From the UHGV virus genome UHGV-0371537: a stretch of 64,000 nucleotides of DNA, one strand, 5' to 3'. The position numbers and the translations under genes were made by a program. This document shows positions 6,734 to 62,473 of this stretch, one piece after another. The stretch comes from a virus. The notes below the pieces were generated by a model, which did no database searches, was not told the DNA's origin, and saw only the letters and a list, made by a program, of their open reading frames with translations. Position 1 is the stretch's first letter. The number at the start of each line of letters is the position of its first letter.

Positions 6734-7462
6734 ATGGGTATGAATTATGTTGATCGTGGCGAGAATGTCGTCAAATATTTTACGGACGAAGATAACGAGC
6801 GTGTCATCAGTATCCTTCGTGACTGGATCCCCGCCCGTAAGAAAGCACTGGCCGAAGGAACAAGACTTCCAAAGATCCCCAACTATGTTGCTGTCCAAGT
6901 CCAGCGCATCATCACCAAGATGAGCACCCGCTACAATTATCGTGACTATCCCTTCCGTGAGGACATGGTCTCTGAAGCCGTCGTGAACATCCTTCGTTAC
7001 CTCCACACGTTTGACGTCGGCCATGTGGGCAAGAAAGGCAAAATCAATTTCTTTTCCTGGGTGACCATGTGTGCTGATCGTTCCTTCGCTCGCAAACTGA
7101 ACATTGAAGAAGAACACACTTACATCAAGTTGCGCTCCTTTGAAGAGGCAGGCGGTTTCGCAGGGCTGGCTGATGACCCAGATTTCCAACAAGAGGTCTT
7201 CGTTGATGCTACTGGGATTGGTATGGACTTCCGCGAGCGCATCGGTAACTTCGAAAACAAGAAGGACGCCCAAAGACAGCGGGAACGCGAAAAGGTAGAG
7301 ACCGCCCGAGCCGCTGAATCGAACAAAAAGATAGCGAAAGGCATACTTCAATACATGTCTCAGGGTAAGAATACCCCAACAGCGCAGGCCGAAGACGATT
7401 CAGATCAGGACTTCGGTAATACCCAATTCGATCTGGAAGAAAACGAAGGAGAAACAGAATAA
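6734..7462 (+). CDS. late-transcription sigma factor, T4 gp55-like
   Basis: Region ...IITKMSTRYNYRDYPFREDMVSEAVVNILRYLHTFD resembles the gp55 core from memory; sits immediately before gp47/gp46 homologs. Confidence 0.65.
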   Translation: MGMNYVDRGENVVKYFTDEDNERVISILRDWIPARKKALAEGTRLPKIPNYVAVQVQRIITKMSTRYNYRDYPFREDMVSEAVVNILRYLHTFDVGHVGKKGKINFFSWVTMCADRSFARKLNIEEEHTYIKLRSFEEAGGFAGLADDPDFQQEVFVDATGIGMDFRERIGNFENKKDAQRQREREKVETARAAESNKKIAKGILQYMSQGKNTPTAQAEDDSDQDFGNTQFDLEENEGETE

Positions 7463-8577
7463 TGGCGATTGCTAAAATCGGCGATCTGCATATCGGGAGC
7501 CGTAATGGTTCCCGTTACGTTCGCGACTTCATTAAGAACTATCTCATCAATTATTTCATCCCCGAGCTGGTCGCCTCCGACATCTATGAGGTGTGGCAGT
7601 TCGGTGATACGTTTGATGTCCGTAAATTCATGTACGGGCGTGACAAAGACTGGATGAAGGATGAACTCACCCCTGCGTTGAAAGCGGCTGGTATCAAGTG
7701 GAATGGTATCGTGGGCAACCATGACATCACCCTGGAAGAGTCCAACCGCATCAACTGGCCATCCTACCTGAACGAACTCGACCCTGACGTCTACCACTAC
7801 TACAGTGAACCGACCGAAGTGATGATTGAGGGTGTTAAGACCCTGCTACTGCCGTGGATCAACAAGGAGAACTATGATGCGTCTATTAAGGCGATACAAA
7901 ATACAGACGCCAAGTACTGTTTTGCGCATTTGGAGTTGGCAGGGTTCAAAATGTACCAGTCCTCTACTTGTGATCACGGTCAGATCGACGTTACTCTCCT
8001 TTCCAAGTTTGACCGGGTCGATACGGGGCATTTCCATACCCGTTCGATGGAAGGTAACATTCAGTATATTGGGACTCCGTATCACCTGAACTGGGAAGAC
8101 TACAAAGACGGCACCAACCGTGGCTTCTATGTAGACGACATGCGTGGCGGTGAAGTCTTCATCCCTAATGCCGAGCACCAGACGCTGTTCCGCTACGTGG
8201 AATATGACTACACCAAATTGTCCTCCGATGACGAAGGCAATTGGATCGACCCGGAATGGCTGAACACAGGCTTGGGTATTGAAGGACAGATCGTTAAGGT
8301 AATCGTACAGAACCGCGACAACGCCAAGCATTATGAGAAGTTCTGTGATGCGATGAAGCGTTGCAAGTGTATTGACTACAACTTCATCGACCGGACGATT
8401 ACCGTGGCGGCCGAGAAGGTTGAGGTCACCGAAGAGATGGTGGCAACCGATGCGGTGGAAGTCCTGAAGAAGGATATCCGCGCCGGGAACAACATCCAGC
8501 GCCCAGAAAATGTCTGCAAGCTGGCTGAGTACTTCTACAACGCTGCCCAACAACGCCTGAACAAACTGGACGCATAA
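7462..8577 (+). CDS. recombination endonuclease subunit, gp47/SbcD/Mre11-like metallophosphatase
   Basis: Metallophosphoesterase motifs GDLHIG, GNHD, GHFH; followed directly by the Rad50-like gene. Confidence 0.8.
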   Translation: MAIAKIGDLHIGSRNGSRYVRDFIKNYLINYFIPELVASDIYEVWQFGDTFDVRKFMYGRDKDWMKDELTPALKAAGIKWNGIVGNHDITLEESNRINWPSYLNELDPDVYHYYSEPTEVMIEGVKTLLLPWINKENYDASIKAIQNTDAKYCFAHLELAGFKMYQSSTCDHGQIDVTLLSKFDRVDTGHFHTRSMEGNIQYIGTPYHLNWEDYKDGTNRGFYVDDMRGGEVFIPNAEHQTLFRYVEYDYTKLSSDDEGNWIDPEWLNTGLGIEGQIVKVIVQNRDNAKHYEKFCDAMKRCKCIDYNFIDRTITVAAEKVEVTEEMVATDAVEVLKKDIRAGNNIQRPENVCKLAEYFYNAAQQRLNKLDA

Positions 8578-8578
8578 C

Positions 8579-10915
8579 ATGACCCAAAGTACAGATATCC
8601 TGGCCAAATTTGGCAATCTTCTGAAGGAAGCTGACACCCCGGTAGAGGTGGAAGTCCCATTCGAAGTGCGTGATAACATTACGCACAAACTGACCTTCCG
8701 CAAAGGCCGCGCCAAGAACTTCCGCTCCATCGGCAATCAGTTCATGGAGATTGATTACCAGCGCAACCCGGCTACCCTCGTCACGTCCGATGACAACGGC
8801 GCGGGTAAATCCACGATGCTGGTGTGGCTGTTGTTCTTCGTATTGTACAACGACACGTACAGCAAGAAGGAGAAGAAGGCAGGTCTGGTGAACTCACAGA
8901 GCCGCAAGGAATGTGTGGGCGAGGTGGAGTTTGCCTGTCGCGGCAGCGAATGGAAGGTTCGCCGTGGCATTAAACCTGACTTTGTTGAAGTCTACCAGAT
9001 GGCGGACGGCAAATGGATGCAGATCGATAATGAAGCAGCCAAGGCCGACATGAACAAGTACATCGTGAACCTCATCGGCGTGGACCAGAAGATGTTTGAG
9101 AACTCTCTGGTTCTGGGTAAAGAGAAGTTCATTCCGTTTACGGAGATGTACACTGCCGACCGCCGCGCCATGGTGGAGACGATTTGGGACTTGGGCTTCT
9201 TCAGCCTGATGAACGAAGATGTCAAGGCCGCCATCAAGAAAGCAAACGAAAAGCTGGACACAATCGCAAATGAATGTGCTTTGAAGGTTGTTGACCACAC
9301 CAACAAGAAGACGCAGCTGCAGCAGATAGAGCAGTCCAATGCCCTTATCCAACAGCAGTCGGCTGATATTCTTGTGCAGCAACAGGAAGCACTGACTTCC
9401 CTGGACGCTGACATCGCCACCCAGAATGAAGAGCGCACCCGCCTCACAGCTGTGGAGTTTGAAGCCACCCAGGAAATGAAGACGGTGGAAAGCCGCCTGC
9501 ATGATGAATCCATGGTTGAGATCGAGGCTGTGAAGAAAGACTTTGAAGCCAAGATCCAAACCGTGAAGAATGCTGCTCAGGACAAGGCTGACGATTATGA
9601 ACGCATCGAAGTGTCTACCGCCGAGCATGATCTTCAGGTCTTGCGTGACCGCGCCTTTACAGTGGCCGAAAGCAAGAACACTCTACTCACCGAGCGCAAT
9701 GCAAACCTGGATGCCCTGAACGCTGCTATCCAACGCCGCCAGCAGGGTGAGAACTTCCGCATCAAGTTCCAGACCGAAATGGACGGACATCAGTCGGCCA
9801 TCAAGCGCTTCCACGACATGGGGACTTGCCCTACCTGTACCCAACTGGTCTCCGATGACACCAAGGCGCGGATTGAGAGTGAGTACAATCCTCAGATCCA
9901 GGAACTGCAGTCGAAGTTAGATCAACTGGACAAAGTTACCGCCGATATCAATGTCCTGATCGATGACCACAAGGCTCAGGACGATAAGTTGGTTGCCGAT
10001 ATTGCTGTGTTGGACGCTGAACTGGATGCAATGCGCAAGCAGGCCGACGAAATCGTTGACAACATCAAACAGCTGCGCCGTGACATTCAGGGGTTCCATG
10101 ACGCCGCCACGATCGAGTGTAACTCTCTGAACCGTGAATGTCAGCAGAAGATCCTTGACATCCGTAAGGCGTTGAACGTTCGTTTTGAAGACATCACTGC
10201 ATCGCTGCAACAGACGCGGGAGAACGCCGTTAGCGGGATTAAAGCCGTCGATGATAAGATCGCCGAGCTGAAAGCCCGTCGTGCTCCTCTCGTGGCGTCG
10301 ATTGCCGATCTGGAGCGTAAACTGTCTATACAGCCGACACCCACAGCCGACCTGGAGAATGCCATCTCCTCGATTGAGGGTGAACTGGAAGATCTATACC
10401 AGCGCCGCGAGGATGCTGACCAGGAACTTCAAGACTTACAGCACCTGTTGTTCTTCCTGAAGGATGACCAGACCAAGGCGCGCATCATCGCCCTGTACCT
10501 GCCATTCCTCAATAGCAAGATCAACGAGTATCTTGAAGCCCTTAACATGTTCCTGGACATCGTTGTTGACGATACCTTTGAGATCACCATGAGTGCAGCA
10601 GGTCGCAAGGGGCAGAGCATCTTTTCCTTGTCTACTGGCCAACGCAGTCGTCTGAACCTGGCTGTGACATTAGCCCTGCGTGATGTGGCTAACCTCAAGG
10701 CATCAGTGCAGTGCAACCTGTTCGTGCTGGATGAAATCCTTGAGAACATGAGCGAGCGCGGGGTGCAGGAATCGGTTGAGATGCTGAAGCATAAGTTCGG
10801 CGGGAACAACCTGTTTGTCATCAGTCAGCGTGAGCAGGAGTTCCAGGAATACTTCCAACACAACATCCGTTATGGCCTGCGAAACGGCCTGACCGAAGTT
10901 ATCAAGAAGGATTGA
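8579..10915 (+). CDS. recombination ATPase subunit, gp46/SbcC/Rad50-like
   Basis: Walker A DNGAGKST, long coiled-coil centre with CPTC zinc hook, Walker B LFVLDE at the C-terminus. Confidence 0.85.
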   Translation: MTQSTDILAKFGNLLKEADTPVEVEVPFEVRDNITHKLTFRKGRAKNFRSIGNQFMEIDYQRNPATLVTSDDNGAGKSTMLVWLLFFVLYNDTYSKKEKKAGLVNSQSRKECVGEVEFACRGSEWKVRRGIKPDFVEVYQMADGKWMQIDNEAAKADMNKYIVNLIGVDQKMFENSLVLGKEKFIPFTEMYTADRRAMVETIWDLGFFSLMNEDVKAAIKKANEKLDTIANECALKVVDHTNKKTQLQQIEQSNALIQQQSADILVQQQEALTSLDADIATQNEERTRLTAVEFEATQEMKTVESRLHDESMVEIEAVKKDFEAKIQTVKNAAQDKADDYERIEVSTAEHDLQVLRDRAFTVAESKNTLLTERNANLDALNAAIQRRQQGENFRIKFQTEMDGHQSAIKRFHDMGTCPTCTQLVSDDTKARIESEYNPQIQELQSKLDQLDKVTADINVLIDDHKAQDDKLVADIAVLDAELDAMRKQADEIVDNIKQLRRDIQGFHDAATIECNSLNRECQQKILDIRKALNVRFEDITASLQQTRENAVSGIKAVDDKIAELKARRAPLVASIADLERKLSIQPTPTADLENAISSIEGELEDLYQRREDADQELQDLQHLLFFLKDDQTKARIIALYLPFLNSKINEYLEALNMFLDIVVDDTFEITMSAAGRKGQSIFSLSTGQRSRLNLAVTLALRDVANLKASVQCNLFVLDEILENMSERGVQESVEMLKHKFGGNNLFVISQREQEFQEYFQHNIRYGLRNGLTEVIKKD

Positions 10916-58336: not shown

Positions 58337-58406
58337 TTCCGGTTCCTCTTAATAAACTAAGGGGAAGTATATACTCCCCCTTCTTCAATAACCGCTGAAT
58401 CTTTAT

Positions 58407-58745
58407 TCAGAGATAAGATTTACCGAGTTCGGTCAGGCGATAGAACGTCACCTCAGTGTTCGGCCAGTTCACGTAAGAACCGTCATGAACCATTGAGCCA
58501 GCTGGTTCGATCAACCCCTTGGCGAGCAGGGAAGCCCCTGTGCGGGTGTCCCATGGGTCGCCTTTGACGGAGGTGAAACCACCAGCGTTCGGGCATACCT
58601 GGAACGTCCAGACGGTGTTGCCCTTGTCATTTGTCCAGGATTTGGGTTGCAAGTACCGTTCACCATAACGGCAATGACCTTTCTCAAAGTTCTCTATCCC
58701 GTAGAGAACTAAGAGTTGGTGTCCTGTAATACGCGGCTTTTTCAT
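58407..58745 (-). CDS. hypothetical protein
   Basis: ATG at 58745 with AAAGGAGT SD (track ORF extends to an alternative upstream start). Confidence 0.4.
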   Translation of the reverse strand: MKKPRITGHQLLVLYGIENFEKGHCRYGERYLQPKSWTNDKGNTVWTFQVCPNAGGFTSVKGDPWDTRTGASLLAKGLIEPAGSMVHDGSYVNWPNTEVTFYRLTELGKSYL

Positions 58746-59059
58746 GACAATACTCCTTTCAGAGCTAAAACGGAAAGCACACCAATAATCAACCATGTCG
58801 GGATAATCGGCTTGCAGTTCATGTGGGTTTCTCCACCTTCGATGTTTGGACTTCCTTGTATAAGAACGTGTTCACAGGAAGCTCTGAACGTCATTACACA
58901 GCCCATCAACACAATCGGCCTGATATAATAACCCGTTTTAGTTTGCTTCACGATACATGGAGAGGAGAAGCGCAGATATGGATCCCCTTTCCGGTAGCCT
59001 GTGATTGTGACCTTCTGCACTTCAGAAGGCACCTTTTGGCCAGGAAAATAAATTTTCAT
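58742..59059 (-). CDS. hypothetical protein with C-terminal hydrophobic segment
   Basis: ORF overlapping neighbours. Confidence 0.35.
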
Positions 59060-59634
59060 ATTTCAATCCCCAGATTGGTGTATAACAACTCAGACAGGGT
59101 TACAGGACGCTTGAATTGTTCCCAACTACAGTTCAGGTATTCACGTTCTTCACGCATTTCACTGTGAAGATGACCATGGATATTATACGCCCAGCGGTCC
59201 AATTGATAAGGAACGTGAGTGGTCAGCACACGACCAACCGGAGTATCACGCTCATACATCGCACCAAAGGAGCTAATCCATCCCTCTTGATACAGCTGCA
59301 TCAACATCTTGAATCTGTCATGGTTGCCTTGCGCCACCCTGATGATAAAGTTCGGTCGCCAGTCATCGGGAACCGGGCGGCGCTTGAACTCATCAATATT
59401 CCTCTTGGCACCCTCGCGCATCAGGCGAATGAACCCCTCAGCCCCGATGAAGCAGATGTCCCCAGCCAGTTCAAGGACGTCTCGGGACTTCAGCCCCTGA
59501 AAGATACTGTCGATAACTGCAGCATCATGCGCCTCTTGGGTATCGAACCCACGGGGCTTGAAGACCTTCTTGTGTCCGAGGTGGGTGTCGCCCAGATATT
59601 TTACAATTCCTGCCATTATGGTCTCCTCAACCAT
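59056..59634 (-). CDS. calcineurin-like metallophosphoesterase
   Basis: Motifs GDTHLG, GNHD, GHLH in canonical order. Confidence 0.65.
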
Positions 59635-60044
59635 TCTAAAATCGATACGTTCACAAACCCCTTATGCCAGCGATGGGGTTTATGGCCTCTGTTGTGTTCG
59701 AGCAAACACGTGTCCGGTGGGACACTGAAGTGGATGCCGTCGATGTCGTAGTAATGCCCATCAATCAGAGTATACACATGACCTTCGGTCTGACTGTAAT
59801 GGATCTCTGCTTGAGGGTACACGTGCTTCAACAACAGAGCGACCTGGTAACACTTCCCGTTCTTCCCCACGTACTCGACATCCACCTGTTGTGGAAACAC
59901 ATCTTTGACAAGGTTTATCAATCTCGTGATGTCATTTACAACAACCGAACGTTTCATATCGCCTCTCCCGAGGATTCGTTGGTGAACCAATGATACTCTA
60001 TCCCGGATATAGAAAAGCCCCTCACGGGGCTTGATCATCTTCAT
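59616..60044 (-). CDS. hypothetical protein
   Basis: ORF overlapping neighbours; start uncertain. Confidence 0.3.
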
Positions 60045-60324
60045 CAGGGAATATACGCCATCGACCTATTCCATACCACTCACCGATAGAGTTCCATGTC
60101 CTTTCCCCAGGCCAGCCACCGACCGAGTAGTAATGCGCCACCAGCCGCCAGTAAGGAAGAGAGGCCGTGTTCACGCCGCCGTCGGCCTTTAGGCAGGCCA
60201 AGTACCAATTCGTGAGACTGAACGCCTGAAATAACGGATGAAGGAACATGAAGTACAGGTAGCCCAATATGGCTGTGAACACCCCAGCTGTTACGATCAC
60301 ACCGATGACAGTGAATACAATCAT
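60022..60324 (-). CDS. small membrane protein
   Basis: Hydrophobic N-terminal TM segment. Confidence 0.35.
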   Translation of the reverse strand: MIVFTVIGVIVTAGVFTAILGYLYFMFLHPLFQAFSLTNWYLACLKADGGVNTASLPYWRLVAHYYSVGGWPGERTWNSIGEWYGIGRWRIFPDEDDQAP

Positions 60325-60953
60325 CCCACAACCTCCAGCCCCATCAGATCTTCCATGGTCTTCTGAATACGCAGCCAGTCAAGCGCAGCGTCATAACGAG
60401 GGTCATGATAGACCATACCTTCCAGTTCCCACGCCTTGATACCAGCATACCGATCCTGCTGTCCAACACCCTTCAGCCAACTCACGATGTCGAAGGTGTG
60501 GTGGTAATCCCAAGGCTCGTTGGAATCCTGCTTACACGTCACCTCAATGATGTGCTGAGCCTTGCGCAGATCGAACAGGTTGCGATCACACCAGTCAACC
60601 GAGCGCGGGTCTACCCCAAGACGATGACAACCCTTGCGGATTTCATCGGCCAGCTGGAAGATAGAGATGTCATCTTCCTTGGGGTACAGACTGACTGCGC
60701 GAGCCGCATCACACGGGTTACGTTTACCCGCCCCCAACCACCATTCTACCGTCCCAGCGTCCTTCACGCGACCAAGTTCGAGCTGCTCTTTGACATTCAG
60801 CTTAATGAACGTCGTGTGCTCCTCAACCAGCTGCTGAAGAGTATAACGCTTGGTCAGGTCGGCGATGGTGTGCGCCCAAGACAGCATGACTGCATCATCC
60901 CAGCGCCCCAAGGTTTCACTGTCGGCCACAGCCAAAAAATTTGATTTATACAT
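60321..60953 (-). CDS. DEDD-family 3'-5' exonuclease (DexA/DnaQ-like)
   Basis: Exo motifs AVADSETLG (DxE), H..D region, YHDPRYDAALD. Confidence 0.5.
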   Translation of the reverse strand: MYKSNFLAVADSETLGRWDDAVMLSWAHTIADLTKRYTLQQLVEEHTTFIKLNVKEQLELGRVKDAGTVEWWLGAGKRNPCDAARAVSLYPKEDDISIFQLADEIRKGCHRLGVDPRSVDWCDRNLFDLRKAQHIIEVTCKQDSNEPWDYHHTFDIVSWLKGVGQQDRYAGIKAWELEGMVYHDPRYDAALDWLRIQKTMEDLMGLEVVG

Positions 60954-61197
60954 GCTTATTCTCCCAACACTTTATTTTGGCTTTTACTGTATAATAATTT
61001 TCATCAATGAACTTTTTGTTGACGCGCTTAATTTCTATCTCTGGGCAAAGTAACCCTATAGTTTCCCTCAAAATCTGGCTCACCCTGGCCTGTGAAATAC
61101 AATAAATTTCTGATACTTCTTTCGAACTAGTTCCAGACATGACAAGTTTTAGAATATTGACCTTTTTATAAAATTCTTGATCAAACGCGCATATCAT
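60946..61197 (-). CDS. small helix-turn-helix protein (sigma region-4-like HTH)
   Basis: SSKEVSEIYCISQARVSQILRE resembles a region 4.2/LuxR-type HTH. Confidence 0.45.
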   Translation of the reverse strand: MICAFDQEFYKKVNILKLVMSGTSSKEVSEIYCISQARVSQILRETIGLLCPEIEIKRVNKKFIDENYYTVKAKIKCWENKHV

Positions 61198-61200
61198 TAT

Positions 61201-61815
61201 TCACCCCTCCTCGTCGATGATTTCTTGCTCATCTTCGACAATCATGATACCTTCTGTGTCCAGATGAGAAAGTTCCATCAGATCATCATCGAATCCGTCT
61301 CCTTCCCTGATATAGAAGACTGGGACGACACGACGGCGGGTCTCTTCATACACGCTTTCAGAGATTCGATTGATATGGCGCACTACACTGTAGAGGTTCA
61401 GGCCACCAATACCACAGCCGATAGCAGGCAGGCCGACATAGACAGTTTCGTCTTTAGTTGCTTCCACAATTTCATGCACCTGCTCAAACAGGGTCTGAAC
61501 AGAACTGATGACTGACGGCATGCGAGCGTTCGGACCTGGATAAAACTGAGTGTAGAGATTCGCACCCCAAACGCCCTTGCTGTGGTCAAATGCATAGGAC
61601 ATACCACCCAGGCGTTGCTCTGGACCACGAGGGTCGTTCGCATCGACTTCGCGCAGCGCTGGGAAGTTGTTGCCGATGTGCAGGGCAATACCCGCGCCCA
61701 TGGTGGACCAGCAGTTGGCACCGTGGGCAAAGATGTTTATCAGATTGAAGCTGCAGGCGGCTTTCAGTAAATCACCGCCATTGATTACATAAGTGGTCAT
61801 GCGTACTGTCTCCAT
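61201..61815 (-). CDS. macro domain (ADP-ribose-binding/hydrolase) protein
   Basis: LINIFAHGANCWSTMGAGIALHIG (cf. macro VVNAAN..GGGV) and LPAIGCGIGGLN glycine-rich loop. Confidence 0.55.
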   Translation of the reverse strand: METVRMTTYVINGGDLLKAACSFNLINIFAHGANCWSTMGAGIALHIGNNFPALREVDANDPRGPEQRLGGMSYAFDHSKGVWGANLYTQFYPGPNARMPSVISSVQTLFEQVHEIVEATKDETVYVGLPAIGCGIGGLNLYSVVRHINRISESVYEETRRRVVPVFYIREGDGFDDDLMELSHLDTEGIMIVEDEQEIIDEEG

Positions 61816-62039
61816 TCAATAATGCTGTTGTCAACACACAACACCTGAAAGATGCCCGTGCGGTGGCGATAATCGGTTATCTGCAGGATAAAGTTGTTCC
61901 CATTGCGGATAATGGTGTTGACAACGATACCCTTGGCAGCAAGGCGTGTTACTATCTCAGTGCAAAGGCGGTCCATATAACCGGACACAGAACCTGGTTC
62001 AAAGCAGCGCTCGAACAGATTTTCAAATTCTGGATTCAT
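61797..62039 (-). CDS. hypothetical small protein
   Basis: ORF overlapping macro gene start. Confidence 0.3.
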   Translation of the reverse strand: MNPEFENLFERCFEPGSVSGYMDRLCTEIVTRLAAKGIVVNTIIRNGNNFILQITDYRHRTGIFQVLCVDNSIIEWRQYA

Positions 62040-62089
62040 TTGTTGTTACCAAACAAGGGGTCGAGGCGGTAATAATACCGCCTTTTTCT

Positions 62090-62473
62090 TCAATAGAGGT
62101 CTTCGGAAAAGAGTTCACGGAAAGGATTGGTTTTGAGGCGGACCTGGTTGATCTGTCCGGCTTCACGGGCTACGACGCAAGCCTCTTCACGAGTGAGGAA
62201 GTTCCCCTGATTGTCGATGAAGCCCTGCTCACGAGTATGAGTAGATTTAATGACGCCAGCCTCCTTCAGAATCTTGAGCTGGCTGTTCATGAATCGGCTA
62301 TGGTGTCGGTCAGCAACAACGATTACATCACCATATTTGTTTGCAGCAGCGACCACACGGCGCTCCCAAGCCCCTTCCGCAGGGAGGTCACGGGTGTACA
62401 GGGGAATCACAGTATCACCGATGGAGTCGCCATTCACCTGGGAGAATAATTTACCATCAGTGCCTGTTGGCAT
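62090..62473 (-). CDS. hypothetical protein
   Basis: ORF; hairpin GGCGGTA-ataa-TACCGCC just downstream. Confidence 0.4.
   Translation of the reverse strand: MPTGTDGKLFSQVNGDSIGDTVIPLYTRDLPAEGAWERRVVAAANKYGDVIVVADRHHSRFMNSQLKILKEAGVIKSTHTREQGFIDNQGNFLTREEACVVAREAGQINQVRLKTNPFRELFSEDLY

Follow-up and report, generated by a model that had tools for sequence, protein, structure and literature searches.

A small gene on the minus strand of a phage genome encodes a calcineurin-like metallophosphoesterase, and the question that it raises is which substrate such an enzyme would act on and whether the protein-phosphatase name given to most of its close relatives is appropriate. The window analysed here is a stretch of 64,000 nt from the viral genome UHGV-0371537. 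Judging by its sequence, it comes from an Agtrevirus-like Ackermannviridae phage; over the 5 kb around the gene, it shares 94-95% identity with Escherichia phages PC3, PH4 and YX22 and with Salmonella phage vB_CECAV_050. Proteins 100% identical to the gene product are annotated as "phosphoesterase" in vB_CECAV_050 and as "hypothetical proteins" in PC3 and PH4, and most of the remaining proteins in the 90% cluster go under the name "putative serine/threonine protein phosphatase". The gene is already public: database entries for several Agtrevirus phages contain the identical protein, and the family is covered by a PHROG of its own.

Gene structure and predicted transcription unit

The ORF list contains an uninterrupted minus-strand frame at 59056..59634 (192 aa), which the first-pass annotation had taken as the gene. 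The frame and the strand stand, but that start lies 18 nt too far upstream: translation most likely, indeed almost certainly, begins at the second ATG (59616), which is codon 7 of the listed ORF. We moved the start because this ATG is preceded at a suitable distance by a Shine-Dalgarno sequence, overlaps by one base the TAA stop codon (59616-59618) of the upstream gene, yields a product of the same length as the identical GenBank proteins (186 aa), and opens the protein with Met-Ala-Gly, an N-terminus common to 15-17 of the 43 family members in alignment A2 and thus not to all of them. The gene and its surroundings are as follows.

60015..60032, minus strand, terminator-like hairpin upstream of the four-gene string; its loop holds the TGA stop codon of the ORF 60022..60324
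59616..59957, minus strand, YunG-like upstream neighbour (PF24591 / PHROG 4814), 113 aa from M30 of a long ORF
59619..59628, minus strand, Shine-Dalgarno sequence GAGGAG, 6 nt before the ATG at 59616, read from the sequence
59056..59616, minus strand, metallophosphoesterase gene, 186 aa, PHROG 547, AQ_1665-type
58742..59059, minus strand, DUF7618 downstream neighbour, 105 aa; its ATG overlaps the TGA of the metallophosphoesterase gene (ATGA)
58407..58745, minus strand, last of the four coupled genes (PHROG 4677), with a probable start at M18 of a long ORF
58359..58382, minus strand, terminator-like hairpin downstream of the four-gene string, with a 10-bp stem

The metallophosphoesterase gene is real and under purifying selection, with dN/dS values of 0.03-0.16 against eight orthologs and of 0.03-0.06 wherever dS exceeds 0.4. 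Its 186-aa product has a pI of 6.7 and carries neither a capping nor a DNA-binding domain.

Stop and start codons overlap throughout the string formed by the YunG-like gene, the metallophosphoesterase, DUF7618 and the next ORF, and the YunG-like gene appears to be translationally coupled to the metallophosphoesterase. The first and last genes of the string are annotated in PQ306799, as a 342-nt CDS for the YunG-like gene and a 339-nt CDS for the PHROG 4677 gene. A hairpin consensus scan returned 11 terminator-like sites versus 7.6 expected, an excess so small that the two hairpins are no more than candidate terminators; the four genes between 60032..60015 and 58382..58359 are predicted to form one transcription unit. 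In a promoter scan, counts were not above the shuffled expectation. The description of the cluster as "early" would follow from the analogy of the surrounding genes with those of T4.

Active-site motifs and conserved residues

In the translation, the motifs GDTHLG, AGDICF, GNHD, THVP and HGHLH follow each other in the order canonical for calcineurin-like metallophosphoesterases. The first-pass annotation had named GDTHLG, GNHD and GHLH, all of which are present in this order, and AGDICF and THVP extend its list. The roles given below are predicted by analogy, from established knowledge of the superfamily.

59575..59592, minus strand, motif I, GDTHLG (G9-G14); D10 and H12 predicted metal ligands
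59449..59466, minus strand, motif II, AGDICF (A51-F56); D53 predicted metal-bridging Asp
59317..59328, minus strand, motif III, GNHD (G97-D100); N98 predicted metal ligand, H99 predicted general acid
59215..59217, minus strand, motif IV, His134 (in TTHVP); predicted metal ligand
59164..59178, minus strand, motif V, HGHLH (H147-H151); H149 and H151 predicted metal ligands

All seven canonical metal ligands and the catalytic His of the superfamily are present. Among 43 homologs with 25-72% identity to the query, D10, H12, G52, D53, G97, N98, H99, H134, P136, R141, H149 and H151 are invariant, and a second set of residues, H15, R22, F24, H30, D31, N145, H147, Y160 and E166, is kept in 36-42 of the 43. 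Several of these are specific to the family: H15 directly follows motif I (40/43), whereas R141 (43/43) and N145 (40/43) lie just upstream of motif V and accompany H147 (42/43). This pattern of invariance and conservation suggests an active enzyme with a specific, conserved substrate site that extends beyond the metal centre, and the metallophosphoesterase is very probably catalytically active.

A large family of the metallophosphoesterase fold

The protein matches PHROG 547, "phosphoesterase", with an E-value of 6.2e-44. Searched as a single sequence against Pfam, it matched neither PF00149 nor PF12850 and gave only a spurious Peptidase_S37 hit of 15 bits, and NCBIfam and PDB sequence searches with the single protein gave no usable match; among its relatives, 21 of 43 match PF00149 and 20 of 43 match PF12850. 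The link to the superfamily is transitive, as Pfam is silent on the protein directly, and runs via PHROG 547, the relatives and the structure model. The best AF2 model (pLDDT 90.2, pTM 0.88), which was the only confident one of five (the other four reached pLDDT 67-70, with an input alignment of 11 sequences), predicts the two-sheet sandwich of the metallophosphoesterases. In BFVD, the same fold recurs in many phage proteins with TM-scores up to 0.88, one of which is labelled COG4186. Homology to the AQ_1665-type / PHROG 547 profile and to PDB entry 1xm7 extends over the full length: a profile of the 43 sequences aligned with 1xm7 from end to end (E 6.8e-23), followed in the PDB by GpdQ (1e-5), SbcD/Mre11 (3e-5), ApaH (5e-3), MPE (0.017) and lambda PPase (0.71). 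There were also weak matches to the cyclic-nucleotide phosphodiesterases Rv0805, Lmo2642 and CpdA. When the 43 members were compared with curated NCBIfam models, PdeM was matched, weakly, by 27 (best E 5.7e-10), and protein phosphatase and YfcE models by two each.

The first-pass annotation had also set this protein apart from the Mre11-like gp47 of the same phage, and both its assignment to the calcineurin-like metallophosphoesterases and this distinction agree with our results. The window encodes an SbcD/SbcC pair elsewhere, at 7462..8577 (plus strand) and 8579..10915 (PHROG 100 and PHROG 77), and pairwise BLASTP between the metallophosphoesterase and the SbcD/Mre11-like gp47 detected no significant similarity. 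We rejected the Mre11/SbcD type for a further difference, namely that the protein has 186 aa, versus ~330-400 aa for a nuclease with a capping domain and a Rad50/SbcC partner.

The family is widespread in phages. Among 1.8 billion proteins, 1,644 representatives, each standing for a cluster at 50% identity, match a family profile built from 11 close homologs at E ≤ 1e-3, and most of these are 155-230 aa long. By tblastn, 546 phage records contain a match: 199 records from Ackermannviridae at ≥90% identity, a group of Klebsiella and Escherichia phages at 52-54%, gene g187 of Yersinia phage phiR1-37 at 36%, and Brevundimonas, Caulobacter and T5-like phages at ~27%. Bacillus phage AR9 and Delftia phage PhiW-14 have further homologs, recognised by structure or sequence. 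Overall, the family is found in Ackermannviridae, T5-like, jumbo and many marine phages. A scan of genome contigs returned only four weak cellular loci, by a search pattern so narrow that it says little on the wider family. No informative extra domain was found fused to the longer homologs, and a literature search (aq_1665, COG4186, T5.034, phrog_547) found no functional characterisation of the AQ_1665 / PHROG 547 clade.

The structural reference of the clade, Aquifex aeolicus AQ_1665 (1xm7), is a structural-genomics protein whose structure was solved in 2004 and which, like the phage clade, has no assigned substrate. It is a cellular protein from a thermophile, and the phage clade differs from it by a helical insertion of ~25-30 residues (about positions 58-90) that separates motifs II and III, because of which distant relatives align in two pieces. 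Besides phiR1-37 g187, PHROG 547 includes a metallophosphatase of Serratia phage 2050H1 and T5.034, the T5 copy, which matches the profile at E 1.3e-55 although T5-like identity to our protein is only ~27%. The company that PHROG 547 genes keep differs between groups: a NinI-like phosphatase in T5, a PHROG 221 MPE in marine phages and YunG-like or QueC-like genes in Ackermannviridae.

The family is distinct from PPP-type protein phosphatases

The commonest annotation of identical and near-identical proteins implies a Ser/Thr (or Tyr) phosphatase that would act on proteins of the host or the phage at an early stage of infection, in the manner of lambda PPase/NinI (PHROG 246; PDB 1g5b). The latter shares the superfamily fold and the binuclear metal centre, and the name common in GenBank derives from it. 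However, we rejected a PPP-type Ser/Thr phosphatase, since the PPP signature is missing: the protein has GDICF rather than GDxVDRG and GNHD rather than GNHE, and its last motif, GHxH, is not of the PPP type. The profile comparison points the same way, with lambda PPase at E 0.71 versus 7e-23 for 1xm7, as does the small share of members (2/43) that touch protein-phosphatase NCBIfam models. In T5, moreover, T5.034 (PHROG 547) directly adjoins the true NinI-like T5.035 (PHROG 246), and since T5 encodes both side by side, the two families probably have distinct functions. We thus consider a protein phosphatase very unlikely, and "serine/threonine protein phosphatase", the label most often attached to the family in databases, is very probably a misnomer.

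The minimal phosphodiesterases MJ0936 and YfcE (Metallophos_2) carry GNCD where the present protein has GNHD, and their signature is devoid of the H15, R22, H30, R141, H147 and Y160 that mark the PHROG 547 clade.

Genomic context and natural loss

Here and in related phages, the metallophosphoesterase is preceded by genes for topoisomerase II, small ORFs, the Tk.4 macro-domain protein, DexA, a small membrane ORF and the YunG-like protein, in this order, and is followed by DUF7618, two genes without known function, dCMP deaminase (~1 kb downstream), a bPH membrane protein, and head and baseplate genes. In all 19 Ackermannviridae loci compared, it lies between DexA and dCMP deaminase, with varying immediate neighbours; in most Ackermannviridae genera, a QueC-like PP-loop ATPase takes the place of the YunG-like protein. 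In distant phages, the family is found among genes for DNA polymerase A, primase-helicase, ribonucleotide reductase, FEN exonuclease and SSB. ORF clustering across 80 viral loci revealed no partner gene conserved across the whole family, and the gene context of phiR1-37 g187 was uninformative. In Brevundimonas phage Kabachok, a gene for the RtcB RNA ligase lies 2.6 kb from the homolog, in a context that is otherwise uninformative.

Dickeya phage RC-2014 (Limestonevirus) carries a clean deletion equivalent to positions 62337..59130 of the window, which takes Tk.4, DexA, the YunG-like gene and the metallophosphoesterase except for its last 75 nt. Because RC-2014 has deleted the block and keeps the 75-nt remnant, the gene appears to be ancestral in Ackermannviridae but dispensable. 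Judged from this comparison of genomes, the metallophosphoesterase has an accessory rather than an essential function.

The context bears on two further possibilities. The first is a helper in thymidylate exclusion or base modification, i.e., a phosphohydrolase of dTMP/dTTP or of an hmdUMP-related compound that would serve the non-canonical thymidine chemistry of Ackermannviridae. Non-canonical thymidine is present in the DNA of AR9, PhiW-14 and Ackermannviridae. Both AR9 and PhiW-14 encode homologs, as does phiR1-37 (g187), and the nearby dCMP deaminase gene would suit such a role. For phiR1-37, dU-containing DNA has been documented (PMC12697855). Nevertheless, experiments have traced the removal of dTMP/dTTP in PBS1, DSS3_VP1 and phiR1-37 to HAD-like, HD and NTP-pyrophosphatase proteins, so that this activity is assigned to those folds and not to PHROG 547 (PMC12697855). 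The loss of the gene from RC-2014, itself a member of Ackermannviridae, also speaks against this role. In addition, the family is carried by T5-like phages, which have canonical DNA. Taken together, a thymidylate-related role seems highly improbable.

The second possibility is a counter-defence enzyme that hydrolyses nucleotide immune signals (cyclic di- or trinucleotides, cyclic mononucleotides, cyclic oligoadenylates or ADPR-derived molecules) and so blunts CBASS, Pycsar, Thoeris or type III CRISPR, as a third class beside Acb1 and Apyc1. The fold is compatible with such an activity, considering that the superfamily includes the weakly matched cyclic-nucleotide phosphodiesterases, and the gene has the accessory character one might expect: it is lost together with the macro-domain gene and DexA in the Dickeya relative, and the genes of its block are small and variable, so that its immediate neighbours change. 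Known enzymes of this kind have other folds, 2H for Acb1 and metallo-beta-lactamase (MBL) for Apyc1 (cf. PMC9117128), and an anti-signalling nuclease of either type was rejected since the predicted fold is that of a metallophosphoesterase. Neither similarity in sequence or fold to known anti-signalling enzymes nor supporting literature was found, which bears out the caution of the first-pass annotation that a role in degrading second messengers had no support beyond the fold. The search with PADLOC defence models also gave no match. The dN/dS of ~0.04 and the fixed synteny across several Ackermannviridae genera fit a housekeeping-type function better than an arms race, and elsewhere the family resides in replication modules and not in anti-defence islands. 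We therefore regard a counter-defence enzyme as distinctly unlikely. A bolder form of this idea, which we find quite improbable, holds that PHROG 547 / AQ_1665-type proteins constitute a third class of phage enzymes, built on the metallophosphoesterase fold, which degrade nucleotide-derived immune signals or alarmones, and that Tk.4, DexA and the metallophosphoesterase form a dispensable counter-defence island; if true, this would explain the clean loss of the block in Dickeya-infecting relatives.

Comparison with metallophosphoesterase nucleases

A further alternative is a small Mn-dependent endonuclease of ssDNA or RNA, or an enzyme that heals ends, as a 3'-phosphatase or a 2',3'-cyclic phosphodiesterase. 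It would be modelled on MPE/PdeM and gp48, and its substrate would be host DNA, intermediates of replication or recombination, or damaged tRNA. Of the curated families, PdeM attracts the most matches from the 43 members, motif I is of the nuclease-like form D-x-H-L-G, and the replication-module setting of the family (FEN, SSB, DNA polymerase), with DexA nearby in the present phage, would be in keeping with such a role, as would the RtcB gene near the Kabachok homolog. Nonetheless, PdeM/MPE (TIGR04123) was rejected as an assignment, given that the protein scores 19.7-19.8 bits, far under the curated cut-off of 150 bits. The MPE of P. putida is an Mn-dependent ssDNA endonuclease with a strongly positive surface, and its His81 is essential for DNA cleavage (PMC7826289). 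The equivalent of His81 (motif II Asp+3), matched by motif position and not by structural superposition, is Phe56 in our protein, and among the 43 homologs this position is occupied by F, W, M or L, never by His. The two also differ in setting and charge: PdeM/MPE belongs to a Lig-Lhr repair operon, whereas there is no ligase/Lhr helicase operon context here, and the near-neutral pI of the present protein contrasts with the positive surface of MPE.

A phage-encoded MPE with DNase activity does exist: gp48 of mycobacteriophage A10ZJ24 has been shown experimentally to be a phosphodiesterase/DNase that degrades host DNA and confers a counter-defence phenotype (PMC12287305). Like the protein studied here, gp48/Bxb1 gp47 is a small MPE encoded near replication genes, but it is longer (255 aa). 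Bxb1 gp47 matches PHROG 221 (E 4.5e-116) and not PHROG 547, and transfer of function from this family was rejected in view of a probability of only 1.4% in the hhalign comparison of PHROG 221 with PHROG 547. Although unrelated at the profile level, the two families co-occur, with a PHROG 221 gene directly beside a PHROG 547 gene in at least nine metagenomic phage loci; since they stand side by side in the same loci, they are probably neither interchangeable nor redundant. A nuclease or end-healing enzyme is further disfavoured by the lack of capping and DNA-binding domains and by the fact that the phage already encodes gp46/47 and DexA. On balance, we judge this alternative unlikely, although it deserves serious consideration.

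Proposed function

The reading that we favour, tentatively, is that of a metal-dependent phosphodiesterase or pyrophosphatase that acts on a nucleotide, dinucleotide or short oligonucleotide, as an accessory enzyme within a block of nucleotide and DNA metabolism. Diesterase chemistry is preferred because the closest relatives with a characterised activity hydrolyse diesters, nucleic acids or dinucleotides, and a small substrate is preferred to DNA because the protein is a bare catalytic domain of 186 aa with a pI of 6.7 that lacks the nuclease His of MPE. The many conserved His, Arg and aromatic residues beside the motifs argue for the same reading. Against it weighs that the closest curated HMM, PdeM, describes an ssDNA endonuclease, which leaves room for a nucleic-acid substrate, and that the genomic context amounts to guilt by association, with no partner gene kept throughout the family.

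In mechanistic terms, a member of the clade would be a binuclear metallophosphoesterase, with Mn2+ or another divalent transition metal as the probable cofactor. Metal 1 would be held by D10, H12, D53 and H151, and metal 2 by D53, N98, H134 and H149; a water molecule bridging the metals would attack the phosphorus, and H99 of GNHD would protonate the leaving group. H15, R22, F24, H30, D31, R141, N145, H147, Y160 and E166 may form the pocket for a small, phosphate-rich substrate, these additional residues being placed around the active site by their proximity in sequence to the motifs. The enzyme would work in the nucleotide and DNA-metabolism block in which its gene is flanked by those for DexA, an oligonucleotide exonuclease, and dCMP deaminase. 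The analysis establishes the gene, its family and fold, the conserved active site, purifying selection, the genomic position and the natural loss in one lineage, whereas metal identity, diesterase chemistry, substrate class and timing are what we infer.

The gene is an ordinary member of a known but functionally orphan family, and its value lies in the size of that family and in its likely misannotation. With 1,644 representative clusters, the family is large and has no assigned substrate. Were the substrate identified, thousands of phage genes could be annotated in one step, and the family could be placed in nucleotide housekeeping, nucleic-acid processing or counter-defence.

Neighbours of the phosphoesterase gene

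In viral contigs and in phage T5, a larger second metallophosphoesterase gene often adjoins or overlaps the small phosphoesterase gene of PHROG 547. The partner in metagenomic phages belongs to PHROG 221 and resembles Bxb1 gp47, and the gene of PHROG 547 together with its larger neighbour may represent a recurring two-phosphoesterase pair. The pairs are found in the following compared loci (L-numbers).

L035, L052, L055, L061, L063, L066, L070, L071, L073: viral contigs, neighbouring genes of PHROG 547 and PHROG 221
L084:2917-4301: T5, T5.034 (PHROG 547) adjoining the NinI-like phosphatase T5.035

The flanking genes were also compared among Ackermannviridae. In most loci from outside Agtrevirus, a PP-loop ATPase resembling QueC (PHROG 1550, E = 3e-68) is encoded beside the phosphoesterase gene, as in two loci of other genera.

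L016:2888-3553: QueC-like gene
L019:4561-5352: QueC-like gene

This ATPase is missing from the window, where the position is held by the YunG-like gene (PF24591). Just upstream of the gene string comprising the YunG-like and phosphoesterase genes lies a terminator-like hairpin, the loop of which contains the TGA stop codon of the ORF at 60022..60324. Opposite the phosphoesterase gene, there is an antisense ORF of 211 codons that displays no sign of being a real gene; the minus-strand frame is under strong constraint, and this ORF is in all likelihood its shadow.

60015..60032, minus strand: terminator-like hairpin, AGCCCC GTGA GGGGCT followed by TTTTCT
59116..59751, plus strand: antisense ORF, 211 aa

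A dispensable block

In the Limestonevirus relative Dickeya phage RC-2014 (L089), a clean deletion of 3.2 kb, equivalent to window positions 59130..62337, has removed the genes for the Tk.4 macro-domain protein, DexA, a small membrane ORF product and the YunG-like protein along with most of the phosphoesterase gene, of which a 75-nt remnant is left; unrelated sequence occupies the place of the DUF7618 segment. The Tk.4-like gene and the phosphoesterase gene belong to one dispensable block.

61201..61815, minus strand: Tk.4-like protein, PHROG 335 "phosphatase" (E = 2.4e-63)

The match of this protein to the Pfam Macro domain is weak (E = 0.009), and it may be an ADP-ribose-processing enzyme.

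Amino terminus and distant relationships of the family

The N-terminal tripeptide Met-Ala-Gly of the phosphoesterase (59608..59616, minus strand) is found again in homologs that share as little as about 30-35% identity (alignments A1 and A3). Such recurrence is unusual for an N-terminus, and the tripeptide may be the sign of one that is processed or important for function.

In Brevundimonas phage Kabachok, a gene for an RtcB-type RNA ligase (L092:178-1416) is located 2.6 kb upstream of the phosphoesterase homolog, a single observation in one phage that is too weak to argue for a role in RNA repair. Six of the 43 family members in alignment A2 yielded weak matches to NCBIfam NF053862, "DS9_1 anti-phage phosphoesterase" (best E = 0.0019), so that the phage PHROG 547 family has a distant relative in a phosphoesterase of bacterial defence.
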